Assembly (NCBI GenBank): GCA_016926255.1
Contig: JAFGOY010000012.1
Location: 14,172-78,171, forward strand
Direction: 5' to 3'
Source: Anaerolineae bacterium
GTDB lineage: Bacteria > Chloroflexota > Anaerolineae > Aggregatilineales > UBA3940
DNA: 64,000 nt
Shown here: in pieces, positions 2,415 to 32,071 of the stretch
Layout of the letters: each line of letters begins with the position of its first letter
How positions within the stretch are numbered: position 1 is the first letter of the stretch
The notes under the pieces: model-generated
Databases searched by the model: none
The model's input: the letters and a program-made list of their open reading frames with translations, nothing else
Told to the model about the DNA's origin: nothing
Program-made: the position numbers and the translations under genes

Positions 2415-3647
2415 ATGAAGGAACTACCGGGGGCGGAATTCAGGGCGCATATCAAAACATGGTTCAAACACATCCGGGTGCTGGTCGATCACATCGGGCC
2501 GCGCGGCTCGACGACTGACGCCGAGCGGCGTGCATCAGAATACTGCGCCGAGACTCTGCAAAGCCTTGACTACGAGGTCACCGTCGAACCGTTCAGGAGC
2601 GCGACCTCGTTATATCTGGTTCACGTCATTGCCGGGTTGATGCTGCTGTCGGCATTCATCATCTACCCGCTGGCGGGACGGATCGGCGCGGCGGCGGCGT
2701 TTTTGCTGGCCTTCATCGCGATGTATTCGGAAACGATGGAGATGCTGTTCCGCAACAACCCGATCCGGTCGATGCTGCCGCGTGGAAACAGCCAGAACGT
2801 AATCGCCCGGCTCGATCCCTCCGACGAGCATCTTCAGGATTTGATCCTGGTGGGGCATGTCGATACAAACCGCTCGCCGCTGATGTTTCGCTCCACAAAG
2901 TGGCTCGACTTCTTCCGAACGGTCACCACGATCACGTATTCGGTGTTTGCGGCACAGGTGCCGATCTACCTCGCGGGCTGGATCACCCAGGGAAGTTCGA
3001 TCCGGTACCTATCGATTCCAAGCCTGCTTTGCGCCATCGTGATGGTGTTCATCATGCTGGAAGCCGAGATGTCGCCTTTCAGCCCCGGCGCAAACGACAA
3101 CGCGACCTCCGTCGGGCTGGTGCTGACGCTGGCCGAGATGCTCAAAAACCGGCCATTGAAAAACACGCGAGTCTGGTTCGTGAATACCGGCTGCGAAGAA
3201 GTGAAGCATTATGGGGCGATTGATTTCTTCAAGCGGTACAAATCGAAGTTCAAGAACCCCAAGGCGCTGGTCTTCGAGATATTCGGGATCGACGGCCCGG
3301 CGTGGCTGGCCGAAGAGGGAATGATCGGGTATTTCAACTACAAGGCGTCGCCGGAACTGGTTTCGATCTGTGAGGACATCGCCGCAGCCAGCCCGGAACT
3401 GGAGGCACACCCCACGACGGTCAACGGCGGCCACTCGGAAATGGCTGACGCGCTGCGGTTGGGCATCCCGGCGATCACATTCATCGGGTTGAACCGGCAC
3501 GGGGCGCGGAAGGGCTACAGCGGCCCGGAGCTTTTCTGGCACCGGATCGACGACACGGTCGATAAGCTGCGTCCGCGCGCGATGCTGCGGAATTTTACCT
3601 TCACCTGGCAGTTCATCACCCGGCTGGATAGGGATCGGCAGGGTTAG
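2415..3647 (+). CDS. M28 family metallopeptidase with internal transmembrane segments
   Basis: 410 aa. M28-type metal-ligand motifs are present: LILVGHVDTN, GANDNATSVG, NTGCEEVKHYG. There are hydrophobic helices between residues ~70-110 and ~170-220. GGAGA RBS lies 7 nt upstream. Confidence 0.75.
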   Translation: MKELPGAEFRAHIKTWFKHIRVLVDHIGPRGSTTDAERRASEYCAETLQSLDYEVTVEPFRSATSLYLVHVIAGLMLLSAFIIYPLAGRIGAAAAFLLAFIAMYSETMEMLFRNNPIRSMLPRGNSQNVIARLDPSDEHLQDLILVGHVDTNRSPLMFRSTKWLDFFRTVTTITYSVFAAQVPIYLAGWITQGSSIRYLSIPSLLCAIVMVFIMLEAEMSPFSPGANDNATSVGLVLTLAEMLKNRPLKNTRVWFVNTGCEEVKHYGAIDFFKRYKSKFKNPKALVFEIFGIDGPAWLAEEGMIGYFNYKASPELVSICEDIAAASPELEAHPTTVNGGHSEMADALRLGIPAITFIGLNRHGARKGYSGPELFWHRIDDTVDKLRPRAMLRNFTFTWQFITRLDRDRQG

Positions 3648-3716
3648 TCTATCAGTCGAGGGACAGCGGCACGCCAGACAGTAAGTTGAATATCCAGATT
3701 ATGTTCTCAACAAAAA

Positions 3717-3747
3717 GCGGGGCAGTGATTTCAAATCGCTGCCCCGC
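3717..3747 (-). terminator. Rho-independent terminator of lipoprotein paralog A (GCGGGGCAG-loop-CTGCCCCGC, U-run on the minus strand)
   Basis: A 9-bp GC stem is read from the sequence. CAAAAA on the plus strand gives a U-run for the leftward transcript. It lies 26 nt past the stop at 3773. Confidence 0.65.
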
Positions 3748-3772
3748 CTGTGTCTGAATGGAATCAGTCGAC

Positions 3773-5260
3773 TTAGTCGGTGCCGATCAGCTTGACGGCA
3801 TCGATCTCATCCCAGCCAGAGTGCGCTCTCTGATCGAGGTAGAGGACAACGGAATCGACCTTTTCATCTATGCCGGAAAACTCGATAGTCCAGGTCACAG
3901 GGCAGAAACTATCGATCTGCGGTTCACCTGAGTAGACTATGTACTCTTCTCCCGATACACCGATCACGATGACCTCGGTAATCGCGCCGGGGTTGTAGGT
4001 CTCATAGATAACGACTGCGGTGGGATAAACCGGGGTCTCATAGTGCAGCTCCAGCCAATCCATGCCGGTGGCTGATGAGGTAGCCCAGGCGGTGTAGTAG
4101 TCGCCGCAATCAAAAGTATCGGCTGGGCCGGTGGCCTGATATGCCGCCCAGTCCGAGTCGGTGTACTGGCTGCTGGCGACTGCGGTATCAGCCCACTGTT
4201 CGATAGTCTTCCCTGAGCCGGAGCCTGGTGGGGCAGACTCTACAGTGGGCAGTTCGCCCTCAAAGACGACGAATCCGTAAGTGCCCGTGCTCCAGGTATC
4301 AACCCGGGCTGTATACAGGCCGTCGACGGGCAGGGTGATGGAAATCCAGGGGTCAACGCCCATCGTGTCATCTTCTTCGGCCAGCAGATCGCCATCGGGA
4401 TCGAGCAACCTGATCCGCGTATCAACTTCACCATCTAAACCAGCAGCAACAATCTGCACTTCCTGATCAGCGGAGCCTTCGAAAACCCAGTTGTGAGCAT
4501 CAAAGACGCTTTCAAAAGTTGATGAATAGGGGACATTCATATCGATAAGCTGTACCAGCGTGGTGTCATAGCCATCGTCCAGATCGAACAAGGGGAGCGA
4601 TGGGTCGACTTCTTCGGCCATTTCGATAGGCTCGACGTCTTCCATCCCGCCTTCACCACCTTCATGTACAGCGCCACCGGTAGGCTCGGTGACGGTGATC
4701 GTGTAATCTCCCGAAAGGAAGGTGTCAACGCGGATGGTATACAAACCATCTTCAGGCAGTGTGTAAGTGATAATGGGGTCAGTGCCATCGGTGTTGTCTT
4801 CCTCAATCAGCAGATAGCCTAAGGGATCAATGAGCCTGGAGCGGGCATCGATGAGATTGTTCCCCTCTACAGCGATCCGTAAAACCTGCCCGGCAGTTCC
4901 CTCGAAAAGCCAGTTGTGAGCATCAAACACGCTTTCAAAGGTTGCGGTAACAGGCGTATCAAGGTAGATACGCTCAACTATGGTTGTGTCATAACCATCA
5001 TCCAGATCGTAAACCGGAAGGTCTTCGTCAATTCCATGCGAGGGTTCTTCTTCCGCGATCTCTTCTTCTATTACTGGCTCTTCTGTAGGACTCTCCTCGA
5101 CTGCTTCTACCGTTTCTTCAACTTCTTCGACTGCTTCATCGACTGCTTCCTCTACCTGCTCGGCGGCACCTGACAATGGCCCACAGGCAAACGCGGCCAC
5201 GACAAGCGCGATGAACACCAGTTTCAATAGAGTTGATCTGTTCGCCAACACGTTCTTCAT
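3773..5260 (-). CDS. Secreted lipoprotein, paralog A: lipobox signal, Glu/Val-rich acidic linker, two PPC-like (pre-peptidase C-terminal type) domains and an unrecognised ~150-aa C-terminal domain
   Basis: I moved the start to ATG 5260 (MKNVLANRSTLLKLVFIALVVAAFACG, lipobox AFAC; GGAGA RBS). The motif DAHNW(L/V)FEG...RL(I/L)DP.G.LL.EED...LP.DGLYT.RVDT occurs twice. The protein is about two-thirds identical to the adjacent ORF by eye. Confidence 0.8.
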   Translation of the reverse strand: MKNVLANRSTLLKLVFIALVVAAFACGPLSGAAEQVEEAVDEAVEEVEETVEAVEESPTEEPVIEEEIAEEEPSHGIDEDLPVYDLDDGYDTTIVERIYLDTPVTATFESVFDAHNWLFEGTAGQVLRIAVEGNNLIDARSRLIDPLGYLLIEEDNTDGTDPIITYTLPEDGLYTIRVDTFLSGDYTITVTEPTGGAVHEGGEGGMEDVEPIEMAEEVDPSLPLFDLDDGYDTTLVQLIDMNVPYSSTFESVFDAHNWVFEGSADQEVQIVAAGLDGEVDTRIRLLDPDGDLLAEEDDTMGVDPWISITLPVDGLYTARVDTWSTGTYGFVVFEGELPTVESAPPGSGSGKTIEQWADTAVASSQYTDSDWAAYQATGPADTFDCGDYYTAWATSSATGMDWLELHYETPVYPTAVVIYETYNPGAITEVIVIGVSGEEYIVYSGEPQIDSFCPVTWTIEFSGIDEKVDSVVLYLDQRAHSGWDEIDAVKLIGTD

Positions 5261-5488
5261 TATCAGTCTCTCCTTCTCCCTACCTGAGACAATAAAAAAA
5301 TATACCCACAGTGTCATTATTTTATTCAAGACGATGATCTGGCGATAGCGGGTTACTGCGATAACAAAGAAAAAAGCCTGGTTTATTGATTTTCAGCCAG
5401 AATATCTCCCAGAAACTGGGGGGCAACCTTCGAATTGTGTTGAGAGTCGAGTCAGTCGAGGGGGGAACTGCATTCCACACACAAAAAA

Positions 5489-5516
5489 TGGGGCAGCGAT
5501 CTGTGTCGCTGCCCCA
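5489..5516 (-). terminator. Rho-independent terminator of lipoprotein paralog B (TGGGGCAGCGA-loop-TCGCTGCCCCA)
   Basis: An 11-bp stem is preceded on the plus strand by ACAAAAAA, which gives a U-run on the minus strand. The stem sequence is homologous to the terminator at 3717-3747. Confidence 0.65.
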
Positions 5517-5544
5517 CCAGTGTGCCGGTTTAAAGCGGCAGATA

Positions 5545-6969
5545 CTACTCGGTTCCGATCAACATAACGGCGTCGATTTCATTCCAGCCGGAGTGATCGC
5601 TCTGATCGAAGTAGAGGATGACAGTGTCGACTTTTTCATCGATTCCGGCGATCTCGAAGCTCCGTGTCATCGGGCAGTAAGCCTTGATTTCAGGGCTGGT
5701 CATGTATGCCGTGTACTGAGAACCTGATACGCCGATCACATCGATCTGATAAAGCGCACCGGGGTTGTAGGTTTCGTAAATGACAACTGTGGTAGGAACA
5801 ACCGGGGTGGCATATTCGAGTTGGAGCCACTCTACACCGGTGGCTGATGCGGAGGCCCAGGCGGTGTCGTAATCGCCGCATTCAGGGGTATCGGTTTCGC
5901 CAGTTGCCTGGGATGCGGACCAGTCCGTGTCGGTGTACTGGCTGCTGGCCGTTGCCCTTACGGCCCATTGCTCGATGGTGGCTCCTGAAGACGAACCGGA
6001 AACTGCTGCGCCTTCGCCTTCCATGACGATCATCCCGTAAGCACCTGTGGACCAGGTGTCTATCCGGACCGTGTACAGGCCGTCGTCAGGGAGGGTGATT
6101 GTAATCCAGGGATCGACACCCATGGTATCATCTTCCTCGGTCAGCAGGTTGCCATCCGGATCGATCAGCCTGGCGCGGGTATCGACTTCCTCATCGATAC
6201 CGGTAGCATAAACCTGGATGTCCTGCCCGGCGGAGCCTTCGAAAAGCCAGTTGTGAGCGTCGAATACGCTGTTAAAGGTCGACGAATAGGGGATGTTGAT
6301 GTCGATGAGCTGAAGCAGCGTAGTGTCATAGCCATCGTCCATATCGAACAGCGGGAGGGACGAATCGACTTCCTCGGCCATTTCGATTGGCTCGATGTCT
6401 TCCGGCGCTTCTTCTTCTGACATTGCTATCTCACCCTCGGTGACGATCAGCGAGTATGTCCCGGTAGACCAGGTATCGACCCGGACTGTATACAAGCCGT
6501 TGGTGGGCAGGGTGATAGAAACCAGGGGGTCGTTGCCTACAGTGTCATCTTCCTCGGCCAGCAGATTTCCGTCAGGGTCGATCAGCCTGATCCGCGTATC
6601 AACTTCACCGCTTCCTGTGGCAGCGATTTGTACAGTCTGACCGGCGGTGCCTTCGAAAAGCCAGTTGTGGGCGTCGAATACGCTATCAAAGGTACCTGAG
6701 ACCTGGCTGTCCATATCAATGAGTTCGACCAGGACAGTCTCGTAACCATCGTCCAGGTCGTATACCGGAAGCTCCTCTTCCACTTTGACGGGAGGTGCCT
6801 CGGTGGGGGCCTCCTCGACCTCCTCCTCTTCTTCAACTACCGGTTCTTCTCCTACTTGCTGGACTTCTTCGGTCACGTTTGTGACAGTGCCACATGCCAG
6901 GGCGCCCAGCAGCAGGGCGATAAGTACCAGTTTCAATATAGTTGATCTTTCTGTCAGCCTATTCCTCAT
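5545..6969 (-). CDS. Secreted lipoprotein, paralog B (same architecture as 3773-5260)
   Basis: I moved the start to ATG 6969 (MRNRLTERSTILKLVLIALLLGALACG; AAGGAGA RBS). It has two PPC-like repeats and the same C-terminal domain (IEQWA..ASSQYTD.DW.A.QATG...CGDY.TAWA...IYETYNPGA...SGW.EIDAV.LIGT). Confidence 0.8.
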   Translation of the reverse strand: MRNRLTERSTILKLVLIALLLGALACGTVTNVTEEVQQVGEEPVVEEEEEVEEAPTEAPPVKVEEELPVYDLDDGYETVLVELIDMDSQVSGTFDSVFDAHNWLFEGTAGQTVQIAATGSGEVDTRIRLIDPDGNLLAEEDDTVGNDPLVSITLPTNGLYTVRVDTWSTGTYSLIVTEGEIAMSEEEAPEDIEPIEMAEEVDSSLPLFDMDDGYDTTLLQLIDINIPYSSTFNSVFDAHNWLFEGSAGQDIQVYATGIDEEVDTRARLIDPDGNLLTEEDDTMGVDPWITITLPDDGLYTVRIDTWSTGAYGMIVMEGEGAAVSGSSSGATIEQWAVRATASSQYTDTDWSASQATGETDTPECGDYDTAWASASATGVEWLQLEYATPVVPTTVVIYETYNPGALYQIDVIGVSGSQYTAYMTSPEIKAYCPMTRSFEIAGIDEKVDTVILYFDQSDHSGWNEIDAVMLIGTE

Positions 6970-7244
6970 TGCCTTTTCTCCTTCATTCTGTTGAAAAATT
7001 ACCTGTAATGCTGTTATTCTATCGCACATCGGTGTTCGCGCGATAGGGGGGCACCGCGATAACAAAAGGGAGGGTCTGGTTTATTGGTTATGGCCAGAAT
7101 ATCCCCCAGTAAATGGGGGGATAGGTGTTTCCTCGCCCTTAGACGAACTTGAACCCGAAACGGCACAAGCCGCCGAAACCCGGGGATAAGAGAATTTGCT
7201 TTTAACATTCCTTGTGCATTCTTTACGGTTTGATTTCCATCGCT

Positions 7245-8612
7245 TCAGACCACGGCGCGGCGGACGTGCCATTCGGTGTGGAGCTGGTGGGCATGGGCGA
7301 CACGCAGCAGCGTCGATGTGTCGCGCCCGACAAGCTGAACGCCAATCGGAAGGCCATCGTCGCTGAAACCGCAGGGCATCGAGAGGGCAGGGAGGCGGCT
7401 CAGGCTGAACGGGTAGGTGAAGCGGAGCAGTTCTGCCGCCGCCGAGACTCCTTCGCTGCCTTCTATTGCGTGGGAGATCACACCGGTGGCCGGGGTAACC
7501 AACACGTCGATCTCGTCGCGGAAGAGGGTGTGGAGCCTGCGAATCCAGGATCGCTCAAACTGGCGGGCGAGGGCATAGTCGGCGGCGCTGCGGGCGGCAC
7601 CCCCTTCGAGACGGGCGCGGACATCGGCACCGAAGCGCTCCGGGGCATTCGCCAGCCGGTCGCGGTGATAGGCGGCAGCATCGCCCATGCTGATCGTCGA
7701 CGCGGCCTGGTACGCCTGCCGGATATCGGGGAGGCTGATGTCAACCTGCGTCATCCGGGCATCGACGGTCAGTACGTCAATCGCGGAGCGCACCGCGCCG
7801 ACCAATTCCAGCGAGAGATCGGCCCAGATCGAATCGTCTTTCGGGACGCCGATACGCAATCCTGCGACCGGCTCGTCGATGGTCTGCGCGTGGGGGATGG
7901 CGGCTTCGATGGTCATTGCGTCGAGCATGAGAGCCACACCTTTGGCAGAATGAGCGAATGGGCCGACGGTATCGAGCGACCAACTCATCGGGATGACGCC
8001 CTGTGTGCTGACCTGCCCCAGCGCGGGACGGAGTCCGGTCAGGCCGCAGAAGGCGGCAGGCAGGCGAACCGATCCGCCGGTGTCGGTGCCGAGCGCACCG
8101 GGGCACATCGCTGCCGCGACCGCCGCTGCCGATCCGCCGCTCGATCCGCCGGGACTGAGGTCGAGATTCCAGGGATTGCGGGCCGGGCCGTAATGGGGGT
8201 TGACGTTCGTCGCGCCGACCGCAAACTCGTGAAGGTTGGTCTTGCCAATGATGATCGCCCCGGCTGCACGAAGCTGCTGGATCACAATTGCATCTTTCCG
8301 GGGGATGTTATCGGAGAAAAACTGGCTCCCTGCGGTGTTTGGGACACCGGCCACATCGATCAGGTCTTTGACGCCAATCGGGATGCCATGGAGCGGCCCC
8401 CAGTCTTCGCCGCGCCCGACTGCCGCCGTTGCCTGCTGCGCTTCCTCACGGGCGGTATCGGCCAGGACGGTGATAAAGGCGTTGATCTTCGGGTTCAGCT
8501 TCTCGATGCGCTCCAGGCTGACCTCGACGACTTCGAGCGGCGTTACTTCCCTTTTGTGGATCAGAGTCGAGATGTCTGCCAGCGATAATTTATCGATCCA
8601 GTCGGTGGTCAT
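7245..8612 (-). CDS. Amidase (amidase-signature family, GatA-like)
   Basis: The amidase signature GGSSGGSAAAVAA and the KDLIDVAG motif are present. I chose the start at ATG 8612 (MTTDWIDKLSLADI..) because of the GGGAGGAG RBS. The 458-aa plus-strand ORF 7212-8588 is an antisense shadow. Confidence 0.85.
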   Translation of the reverse strand: MTTDWIDKLSLADISTLIHKREVTPLEVVEVSLERIEKLNPKINAFITVLADTAREEAQQATAAVGRGEDWGPLHGIPIGVKDLIDVAGVPNTAGSQFFSDNIPRKDAIVIQQLRAAGAIIIGKTNLHEFAVGATNVNPHYGPARNPWNLDLSPGGSSGGSAAAVAAAMCPGALGTDTGGSVRLPAAFCGLTGLRPALGQVSTQGVIPMSWSLDTVGPFAHSAKGVALMLDAMTIEAAIPHAQTIDEPVAGLRIGVPKDDSIWADLSLELVGAVRSAIDVLTVDARMTQVDISLPDIRQAYQAASTISMGDAAAYHRDRLANAPERFGADVRARLEGGAARSAADYALARQFERSWIRRLHTLFRDEIDVLVTPATGVISHAIEGSEGVSAAAELLRFTYPFSLSRLPALSMPCGFSDDGLPIGVQLVGRDTSTLLRVAHAHQLHTEWHVRRAVV

Positions 8613-8751
8613 GGCTCCTCCCGTCGATGTGGTGTACCGGGTCTTTCGTGGTGCGATCTTAATTATACGTGGATTCGGCGGGGAGGATGAATTGTGATAC
8701 TGCTGGATAGTCAGGAAAACATGCAAAAAGCGCGTAGTGACAGGGAGAAGT

Positions 8752-31681: not shown

Positions 31682-32071
31682 TCACGATGAGCGACCAAGC
31701 TGAACGAGTTCCAGCGTGCTGATGCTGATCAGGAAGACGACAAGGAGCCAGAGAGAAACAGCACCGCCAGTCGACAGTGTAAGCCTGCCGAAGGTCAGCC
31801 AGCCAGCGAGCATCGCCCCACCGCAGAGGTTGATCGCTGCGGCCCCGGCGGTACCCAATCCGACCTGTGGGGAAGTCTTATCGCGCAGTGCTTCCCAGGC
31901 GAGGGCTATCGCAATACCGACGAAGACTGCGCCGAGGATATTGACATAAAACAGCCTGTCAGGAACAGGCAGACCCATCCAGTGAGCGACCGGCGGCGTA
32001 AAGAAAATCAGCAGGATGCCCAACGCAAGATTGATTGAAGAATCGATTAACAGCAGACTGCGTTGTTTCAC
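31682..32071 (-). CDS. Small integral membrane protein (4 predicted helices), GTG start
   Basis: The start is placed at GTG 32071 because a GAGGAGG RBS lies 7 nt upstream. The track start at 32107 has no RBS. Confidence 0.55.
   Translation of the reverse strand: MKQRSLLLIDSSINLALGILLIFFTPPVAHWMGLPVPDRLFYVNILGAVFVGIAIALAWEALRDKTSPQVGLGTAGAAAINLCGGAMLAGWLTFGRLTLSTGGAVSLWLLVVFLISISTLELVQLGRSS

Follow-up and report, generated by a model that had tools for sequence, protein, structure and literature searches.

The M2 domain (F702-P883) of the human protease PAPP-A (pappalysin-1) has been described as an F5/8 type C-like beta-sandwich binding one Ca2+, the long loops of which face the active-site cleft of the enzyme; no sequence similarity was reported for the PAPP-A M domains when this structure was published in 2022 (PMC9579167). 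The same fold is found in CBM32 and F5/8 type C modules, for example in the CBM32 of NanJ from C. perfringens. Another arrangement of relevance is the s3a-s3b segment of the Hathewaya histolytica collagenase ColG, where two consecutive PPC-type beta-sandwiches form a C-terminal appendage of the secreted enzyme. The present analysis deals with two adjacent genes, called here A and B, whose products combine both kinds of modules in small lipoproteins. They lie on the minus strand of a 64,000-nucleotide (nt) stretch of DNA (the window) from an Anaerolineae bacterium (assembly GCA_016926255.1, contig JAFGOY010000012.1, positions 14,172 to 78,171), and the coordinates of all their features are collected in Table 1.

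The whole set of observations is best explained if A and B are paralogous, separately transcribed, probably co-regulated, non-enzymatic binding lipoproteins of the cell surface, a reading to which a probability of about 0.7 is given. Compared with PAPP-A, in which M2 is inserted in the M1 domain of a 1,500-residue metzincin protease, the homologous domain of A and B stands at the end of a small lipoprotein devoid of any protease. In the same way, A and B share with ColG s3a-s3b the two consecutive PPC-type sandwiches and an acidic D-x-D-D-G segment before each of them, but they have no collagenase or other catalytic domain, and carry a predicted N-terminal lipid anchor instead of being appended to a secreted enzyme.

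A transcription unit duplicated in tandem

Both open reading frames (ORFs) put forward in the original prediction are present, with a ribosome-binding site before each ATG. The pairwise alignment of the two copies confirmed a tandem segmental duplication of the whole transcription unit, which measures 1.7-1.8 kb and is repeated collinearly on the same strand. As anticipated, the duplication reaches beyond the coding sequences: the upstream block, the terminator and the 3' flank all align between the copies, and the sequence shared past both terminators, CAGTCGAGGG, has just two occurrences in the 64 kb, one per unit (3653-3662 and 5453-5462, 1800 nt apart). Unit A extends right up to a convergent M28 peptidase gene (2415-3647), at the stop codon of the latter. 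When compared with 500 dinucleotide-preserving shuffles, the local alignment of the two upstream regions (82 nt, about 76% identity) scores 72 versus 17.7 +/- 2.1 (z = 25), and the alignment of the terminators reaches z = 9.4, far better than a random resemblance. The coding sequences are only 45% identical at four-fold degenerate sites and 51% at third codon positions, with a synonymous divergence (dS) of 1.08-1.20 by three methods. The non-coding similarity thus exceeds both chance and what descent alone would leave after an old duplication. The duplication looks old indeed, given this dS of about 1.1, and the ratio of nonsynonymous to synonymous divergence (dN/dS) between A and B, of about 0.22, indicates that both copies are under purifying selection.

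The homology of the two terminators could also be established from their pairing, which is kept at five loci, namely A, B and the orthologous loci L001, L003 and L004. Their consensus stem has 15 pairs, followed by T runs, and compensatory double changes are observed in 4 of these 15 pairs (e.g., CAGCGA/TCGCTG, CAGTGA/TCACTG and CGGCGA/TCGCCG). The hairpins are thus genuine homologous intrinsic terminators. The terminator of B lies some 60 nt ahead of the upstream block of A, so that each gene forms a transcription unit of its own. At the borders of these units, an octamer, TCAGTCGA (TCGACTGA on the gene strand), is found at 3652-3659, 3764-3771 and 5452-5459, i.e., once immediately past the stop codon of A and once at the distal border of each duplication unit. 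Its count in the window is not significant (4 observed vs 2.45 expected), and the orthologues keep (A/G)TC(G/A)(A/G)CTGAT directly past their stop codons. By its position at the unit boundaries, this octamer could be the repeat that mediated the duplication.

The orthologues place the duplication in a wider context. L003 (protein P0004) is a single-copy locus from another metagenome, with an amidase gene upstream and an M28 peptidase gene further downstream, as in the window. The protein of L001 and L002 (P0002) is 77% identical to B; the neighbours of these two loci, like those of L004 (P0003), are unlike those in the window. Proteins A and B, which share 61% identity and 76% similarity in a full-length alignment, have diverged unevenly: the identity is 48% in the signal peptide plus tether, 61% in the first PPC domain (PPC1), 65% in the C-terminal domain and 78% in the second PPC domain (PPC2). 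The PPC1 domain of A is particular in that it is 91% identical at the protein level, and 85-91% at the nucleotide level, to PPC1 of the L003 gene (L003:5602-7032), with a third-position identity of up to 0.80, whereas outside PPC1 both the L003 gene and its upstream region are closer to B (81% across 124 nt of upstream sequence, compared with 71% between B and A). Because the synonymous sites share this signal, PPC1 reflects recombination, that is a more recent common ancestry, and not merely a stronger constraint. This mosaic implies that the L003 lineage has, or once had, an A-type sequence, and hence that the duplication predates that split. A neighbour-joining tree of PPC2 and the C-terminal domain does not resolve the timing, with A outside the B clade in 39% of the bootstraps and sister to B in 14%.

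The non-coding sequences of the two copies might also have been kept alike by a recent gene conversion instead of by selection for regulatory sites. The PPC1 mosaic shows that recombination does occur in this family, and the identity between A and B is raised in the PPC2 region (0.76-0.84). However, the coding sequence that adjoins the upstream block, encoding the signal peptide and tether, is the most diverged of all (nucleotide identity 0.57-0.68, third positions 0.29-0.53), and the same blocks are kept at 81% identity in the single-copy locus of a different organism, L003, so that conversion limited to the non-coding block is unlikely. The similarity is moreover patchy, with exact 11-mers between diverged spacers, which is the pattern of footprints and not that of a conversion tract. 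Gene conversion looks therefore an improbable source of the non-coding similarity, and selective retention of the upstream blocks is preferred.

A repeat of about 90 nt was observed during this comparison. It is palindromic, with terminal inverted repeats (CACTCCATTTCCAGGAAGCCCC...GGGG...AATGGAGTG), and flanks the orthologous genes in two lineages of metagenome-assembled genomes (L001:~7645-7735, L002:~3485-3575 and L004:~395-490). In L001 and L002 it is located at a contig end or close to one, and the window has no copy of it. It looks like a miniature inverted-repeat transposable element or a repetitive extragenic palindromic element, and may break assemblies.

Modular lipoproteins with a PAPP-A-like domain

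Public databases list the window proteins as 'PPC domain-containing protein [Anaerolineae bacterium]'. The sequence of protein A is identical to the public entry P0005. The public NCBI model of gene B (P0001, 389 aa) begins at Met86, and thus misses the start of PPC1 and everything before it, namely signal peptide, lipobox and acidic tether. A ribosome-binding site, together with N-termini kept in all orthologues, speaks for the longer ORF from ATG 6969.

The common architecture proposed for the two proteins was recovered in full, with a lipobox, an acidic tether, two PPC domains and the C-terminal domain in each of them. The type II signal peptide was defined by a positive N-region, a hydrophobic H-region and the motif [LIVMFWSTAG]2-[LIVMFYSTAGCQ]-[AGS]-C within the first ~40 residues (PROSITE PS51257-type pattern). 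Both A and B conform to this definition with a lipobox ending at Cys26, and the pattern is also present in nine homologues (Cys23-27), in the shorter one-PPC relatives and in all orthologues. The segment following Cys26 (40 residues in B, 54 in A) contains 38-43% Asp plus Glu and almost no basic residues. In the full-length AlphaFold2 model of B, residues 2-23 of the signal region form a helix, the tether and the linkers are disordered, with a predicted local distance difference test score (pLDDT) below 50, and the three domains reach pLDDT values mostly of 80-97, for a predicted template modelling score of 0.38. The modelled molecule looks like beads on a string. ColG s3a-s3b (5iku) is the second-ranked Foldseek match of this full-length model, over 258 columns with 16% identity. 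The Pfam PPC family (PF04151, gathering threshold 25.9 bits) matches two stretches in each protein, with 51 bits for A (E 2.8e-13) and 62.2 bits for B (E 8.6e-17).

No peptidase or other catalytic domain was detected in A or B with Pfam and NCBIfam, the latter giving only sub-threshold matches (choice_anch_X and Por_Secre_tail). The absence of a peptidase, which had been presented as unusual for proteins with PPC domains, is thus verified; its unusual character is not, as protease-free proteins combining PPC and PAPPA domains are common among the matches, many of them from Chloroflexota.

The C-terminal domain of about 145 residues, which could not be placed when the sequence was first read, corresponds to the Pfam family PF25900 'PAPPA' in the precomputed annotation of P0001, P0005 and all orthologues. 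It has a discoidin-like fold. The local Pfam scan gave only sub-threshold matches, to DUF7402 (score 18.8, threshold 27) and to F5_F8_type_C (PF00754; 16.6 bits for B against a gathering threshold of 28.2, and no match for A). In searches of the Protein Data Bank sequences, the single domain sequence found no match, and PAPP-A was reached only through a profile of 37 diverse copies of the domain (alignment A3). This profile matches PAPP-A residues ~640-791 across the full domain length, including the terminal EIDA strand (E 0.011-0.06), followed by CBM32 and factor VIII C2, and shows weak similarity to the chitosan-binding DD1/DD2 domains of Paenibacillus (E 0.05). The AlphaFold2 model of the domain of B alone has a pLDDT of 96.4. 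Its top Foldseek matches are seven PAPP-A entries (template modelling (TM) score 0.73-0.80, 22-24% identity, E down to 4e-9), the matched segment being the M2 domain (PMC9579167), which is the best structural match. Next come CBM32, neuropilin b1, factor VIII C2, the muskelin discoidin domain and fucolectins, with TM scores of 0.62-0.70 and an identity of only 16-19% for the CBM32 and F5/8 type C structures. The likeness to discoidin and CBM32 modules is one of fold only, with scores below the Pfam thresholds.

Local differences are observed between the domain of A and B and PAPP-A M2. The latter has long loops and Cys732 for linkage to stanniocalcin-2, where the bacterial domain has one putative disulfide of its own and a distinct signature (QWA..ASSQY, CGD..TAWAS, YETYNPGA and GWNEIDAV). 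Each protein contains three cysteines, the lipobox Cys and two inside the PAPPA domain. The latter two (Cys364 and Cys432 in B) are both present in 22 of the 37 sequences of alignment A3 and both absent in the other 15, a co-occurrence which indicates a likely disulfide that some lineages do without. The domain is widespread: the profile search retrieved 5,415 clusters at 50% identity with E <= 1e-3, including 4,044 with E <= 1e-10, and many of the proteins hold 2-8 copies. Its partners among the first matches are PPC domains, NHL/SGL beta-propellers, a BlaR1-type M56 domain and a macroglobulin domain. Literature searches on PF25900 and on PPC lipoproteins in Chloroflexi returned nothing relevant. 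The domain is thus of a discoidin type, as had been considered possible, and no established bacterial role came with this assignment.

Both kinds of modules could in principle serve an enzyme encoded next to them, the lipoproteins recruiting substrate for the neighbouring membrane M28 peptidase or amidase (7245-8726, minus strand; Pfam Amidase E 5.9e-112), as M2 might for PAPP-A. The order amidase-lipoprotein-M28 is common to the window and L003, the loops of M2 face the PAPP-A active site (PMC9579167), and PPC is a typical accessory module of secreted proteases according to its Pfam family description. This gene order is, however, restricted to close relatives: a succinate dehydrogenase/fumarate reductase operon lies upstream in L001, the neighbours in the more distant locus L006 are unrelated, and genes for an ATP-binding cassette (ABC) substrate-binding protein and a histidine kinase separate the lipoprotein and M28 genes in L003. 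The M28 gene is convergent and so not co-transcribed, and the amidase belongs to the general amidase-signature family, with no secretion signal in its ORF as read. A dedicated service to either hydrolase appears accordingly most improbable, and the lipoproteins are rather seen as binding proteins in their own right. A 458-residue ORF (7212-8588, plus strand), rich in Arg, Gly and Ala, runs antisense to the amidase gene and is most likely a spurious shadow ORF of this G+C-rich gene.

Upstream elements and possible co-regulation

The upstream regions of five loci (A, B, L001/L002, L003 and L004) were compared, and two levels of conservation could be distinguished. The first one, common to all five, consists of (CCC)CTATCG(C/G), a spacer of 17-18 nt and a TAnnnT hexamer, some 45-60 nt ahead of the start codon. 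Three loci (B, L003 and L001) have TAGAAT as this hexamer, A has TAAAAT and L004 has TACCCT, and a scan with CTATCG-N17-20-TAnnnT matched L001, L002, L003 and L004. The second level is restricted to A, B and L003, and comprises the distal GTTATCGC, a T-rich stretch, CAATAAAC(CAG), GATATTC(TGGC) and a C6/G5-6 hairpin, which is perfect in B, where a 24-nt stretch is identical to L003, and degenerate in A.

The direct repeat GCGATA-N10-GCGATAAC, described in the original prediction as kept upstream of both genes, is indeed found there, exactly twice in the 64 kb. Its two-copy form is not itself the conserved element, as the distal copy is degenerate in the orthologues (GTTATTGT in L003, ATTATTTAC in L001). 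What is conserved appears to be a core promoter together with a possible operator. The further block upstream of the repeat, also noticed at first reading, is well supported in A, B and L003 (z = 25 for the whole upstream alignment of A and B), and its conservation does not extend to L001 and L004.

The structural features of the first level are read as a candidate core promoter. TATCGC at the -35 position is a poor match to TTGACA, while the -10-like TAGAAT/TAAAAT is conserved. Together with the TATCG/GATA repeats, this poor -35 element points to an activator, a repressor or an alternative sigma factor more than to unaided sigma-70. A perfect palindrome, CTATCGC-N14-GCGATAG (7019-7046, minus strand), spans the -35 to -10 interval of B, its left arm including the proximal TATCGC and its right arm overlapping the -10 hexamer. 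It is identical in L003 (~5520-5547), imperfect in L001 and absent upstream of A. Such an arrangement would suit a dimeric repressor, and its absence upstream of A means that A and B may not be regulated identically.

Several points weigh against co-regulated surface lipoproteins and have to be set beside these observations. The candidate promoter rests on the conserved -10-like hexamer and its spacing. A generic sigma-70 scan (TTGACA-like -35 and TATAAT-like -10 elements, 16-18 nt apart) called no promoter for B on the gene strand, and proposed two alternatives for A, one of them nearer the start codon (ATGACA-17-TATTGT). In L001, which carries the closest orthologue of B, and in L004, the distal TATCGC repeat and the distal block are either absent or degenerate. 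With up to two mismatches allowed, GCGATA-N10-GCGATAAC has no site in the 64-kb window beyond the two already known, and no regulator or transcription factor gene was found among the neighbours of A and B in the window, which comprise a mannitol dehydrogenase-like gene, the M28 peptidase, the amidase, a pentapeptide-repeat gene, FdhD and a GNAT acetyltransferase. Lipidation, for its part, is predicted from the sequence pattern only.

The wider searches were no more productive of additional sites. TATCGC is not enriched in the window (40 observed vs about 35 expected), and its only other close pair there, at 31878/31906, apparently lies in minus-strand coding sequence, as judged by eye. A search of the genome contigs with protein B gave one distant locus only, and the metagenome scan with the alignment six more; none of these more distant loci (L005-L011) carries the upstream motifs. 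The idea of a shared regulator site keeps thus its first support, the retention of the upstream blocks beyond neutral expectation, and lacks the second, recurrence elsewhere in the 64 kb. A common regulator of A and B is probably a reasonable reading, the upstream block being a candidate site without a demonstrated regulon.

A transcribed cis-regulatory RNA common to both genes (a leader or riboswitch-like element) in place of a DNA-level promoter or operator would account for the block kept in L003 and for the folding of the B upstream region (z = -2.74 against shuffles, with the perfect 8-bp hairpin and a second long one), but is very hard to sustain, since the folding of the A region is poorer than that of shuffles (z = +1.40) with no structure common to both copies, the hairpins of B are DNA palindromes of which A has degenerate versions or none, a -10-like hexamer is conserved downstream of the block, the only two Rfam matches in 3500-7300 at E <= 10 are at chance level (E 2.8 and 9.3), and the conservation of sequence blocks rather than pairing makes a role at the DNA level more likely.

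Table 1. Coordinates of the features of genes A and B, numbered along the window (nt) unless residues are stated.
Feature	Position	Strand	Description
Duplication unit A	3653..5452	minus	Upstream block (ending near 5425), gene A, terminator, 3' flank
Duplication unit B	5453..~7125	minus	Upstream block, gene B, terminator, 3' flank; similarity starts at CCCCCC hairpin near 7121-7123
Gene A	3773-5260	minus	495-aa lipoprotein; start ATG 5260; ORF list and GGAG-rich ribosome-binding site upstream
Signal peptide, A	residues 1-25		Predicted
Lipobox, A	Cys26		Predicted
Acidic tether, A	residues 27-80
PPC1, A	~4676-5020	minus
PPC2, A	~4253-4597	minus
PAPPA/discoidin-like domain, A	3776-4210	minus
Gene B	5545-6969	minus	474-aa lipoprotein; start ATG 6969; ORF list and GGAG-rich ribosome-binding site upstream
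Signal peptide, B	residues 1-25		Predicted
Lipobox, B	Cys26		Predicted
Acidic tether, B	residues 27-66
PPC1, B	~6430-6771	minus
PPC2, B	~6016-6357	minus
PAPPA/discoidin-like domain, B	5548-5982	minus
Repeat, gene A	5342..5365	minus	GTTATCGC-N10-TATCGC on gene strand; proximal TATCGC 5342-5347 at -35 position
Repeat, gene B	7040..7063	minus	GTTATCGC-N10-TATCGC on gene strand; proximal TATCGC 7040-7045 at -35 position
Candidate -10, gene A	5319..5324	minus	TAAAAT, 17 nt past TATCGC; aligns with TAGAAT of B, L003 and L001
Candidate -10, gene B	7016..7021	minus	TAGAAT, 18 nt past TATCGC
Distal block, gene A	5378..5425	minus	Degenerate hairpin CCCAG-TTT-CTGGG, then GATATTCTGGC and CAATAAACCAG
Distal block, gene B	7075..7123	minus	Perfect 8-bp hairpin TATCCCCC-N8-GGGGGATA (7100-7123), then ATATTCTGGC and CAATAAACCAG
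Intrinsic terminator, gene A	3712..3748	minus	G+C-rich hairpin, then T run
Intrinsic terminator, gene B	5481..5518	minus	13 pairs (8 G-C), then T-rich tail TTTTGTGTGT (terminator scan)

Proposed function and place in the family

Chloroflexota are generally regarded as single-membrane bacteria. The lipidated Cys26 would thus tether each protein to the outer face of the cytoplasmic membrane, where the acidic disordered spacer of 40-54 residues would hold out three independently folded beta-sandwich modules. The PPC pair, which has the same fold as the tandem Ca2+-dependent domains of the clostridial ColG, may work like the collagen-binding domains of collagenases, and the PAPPA domain may act like a discoidin or CBM32-type module. 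By analogy with these families, the likely function is the capture of, or adhesion to, an extracellular polymer, glycan or protein. At the level of the genes, a unit comprising promoter region, coding sequence, terminator and 3' flank would have been duplicated in tandem long ago, selection then keeping the core promoter (CTATCG at -35, 17-18 nt, TAnnnT) and the upstream block, so that the same factor probably drives both genes. A and B have diverged mainly in the tether and in PPC1, the latter recombining, which suggests that the two proteins differ in binding specificity or reach.

Most of these elements are not particular to this locus. Every component belongs to a curated family or class (PPC PF04151, PAPPA PF25900, lipoprotein signal, intrinsic terminator), and the combination of PPC and PAPPA domains, seen in dozens of matches such as the 'PPC domain-containing protein [Caldilinea sp.]' cluster, is common in Chloroflexota, as are tandem paralogues in the family. 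The pair is thus a fairly ordinary member of it, with the reservation that the form with two PPC domains and one PAPPA domain is confined to the small orthologue group. Tandem expansion of this lipoprotein family appears to recur in other Anaerolineae-like contigs. In L006:2294-4603, three adjacent related lipoprotein genes all start with an ALACTCGPL-type lipobox, two of them encoding PPC-only proteins (164 and 222 aa) and the other one a PPC plus PAPPA protein of 353 aa, with gaps of 22 and 64 nt. This close spacing is operon-like, in contrast with the window copies, each of which has its own promoter region and terminator. Specific to the present locus are the duplication of a whole transcription unit with footprint-like control elements, the TATCG promoter/operator candidate and the PPC1 mosaic.

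A bolder proposal can be built on these specific features, namely that the TATCG/GATA array and the spacer-spanning palindrome form the operator for an Anaerolineae regulator not yet described, which would be specific to these surface proteins, and that PPC1 is a recombining cassette which changes surface binding. It is speculative and unlikely to hold in this complete form. If it were true, the pair would be a small co-regulated system for the variation of surface specificity, and not a plain duplicate.

The importance of the locus is modest and current understanding is not overturned by it. It corrects the public model of gene B, which lacks the signal peptide. It also offers a clean case, in an uncultured member of the Chloroflexota, of a duplicated transcription unit that has been kept, with its control elements standing out as footprints against a saturated neutral divergence, and yields a promoter/operator candidate in a phylum for which little is known of transcription signals. 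Beyond this organism, the discoidin domain of the PAPP-A M2 type turns out to belong to a large bacterial family of surface modules.

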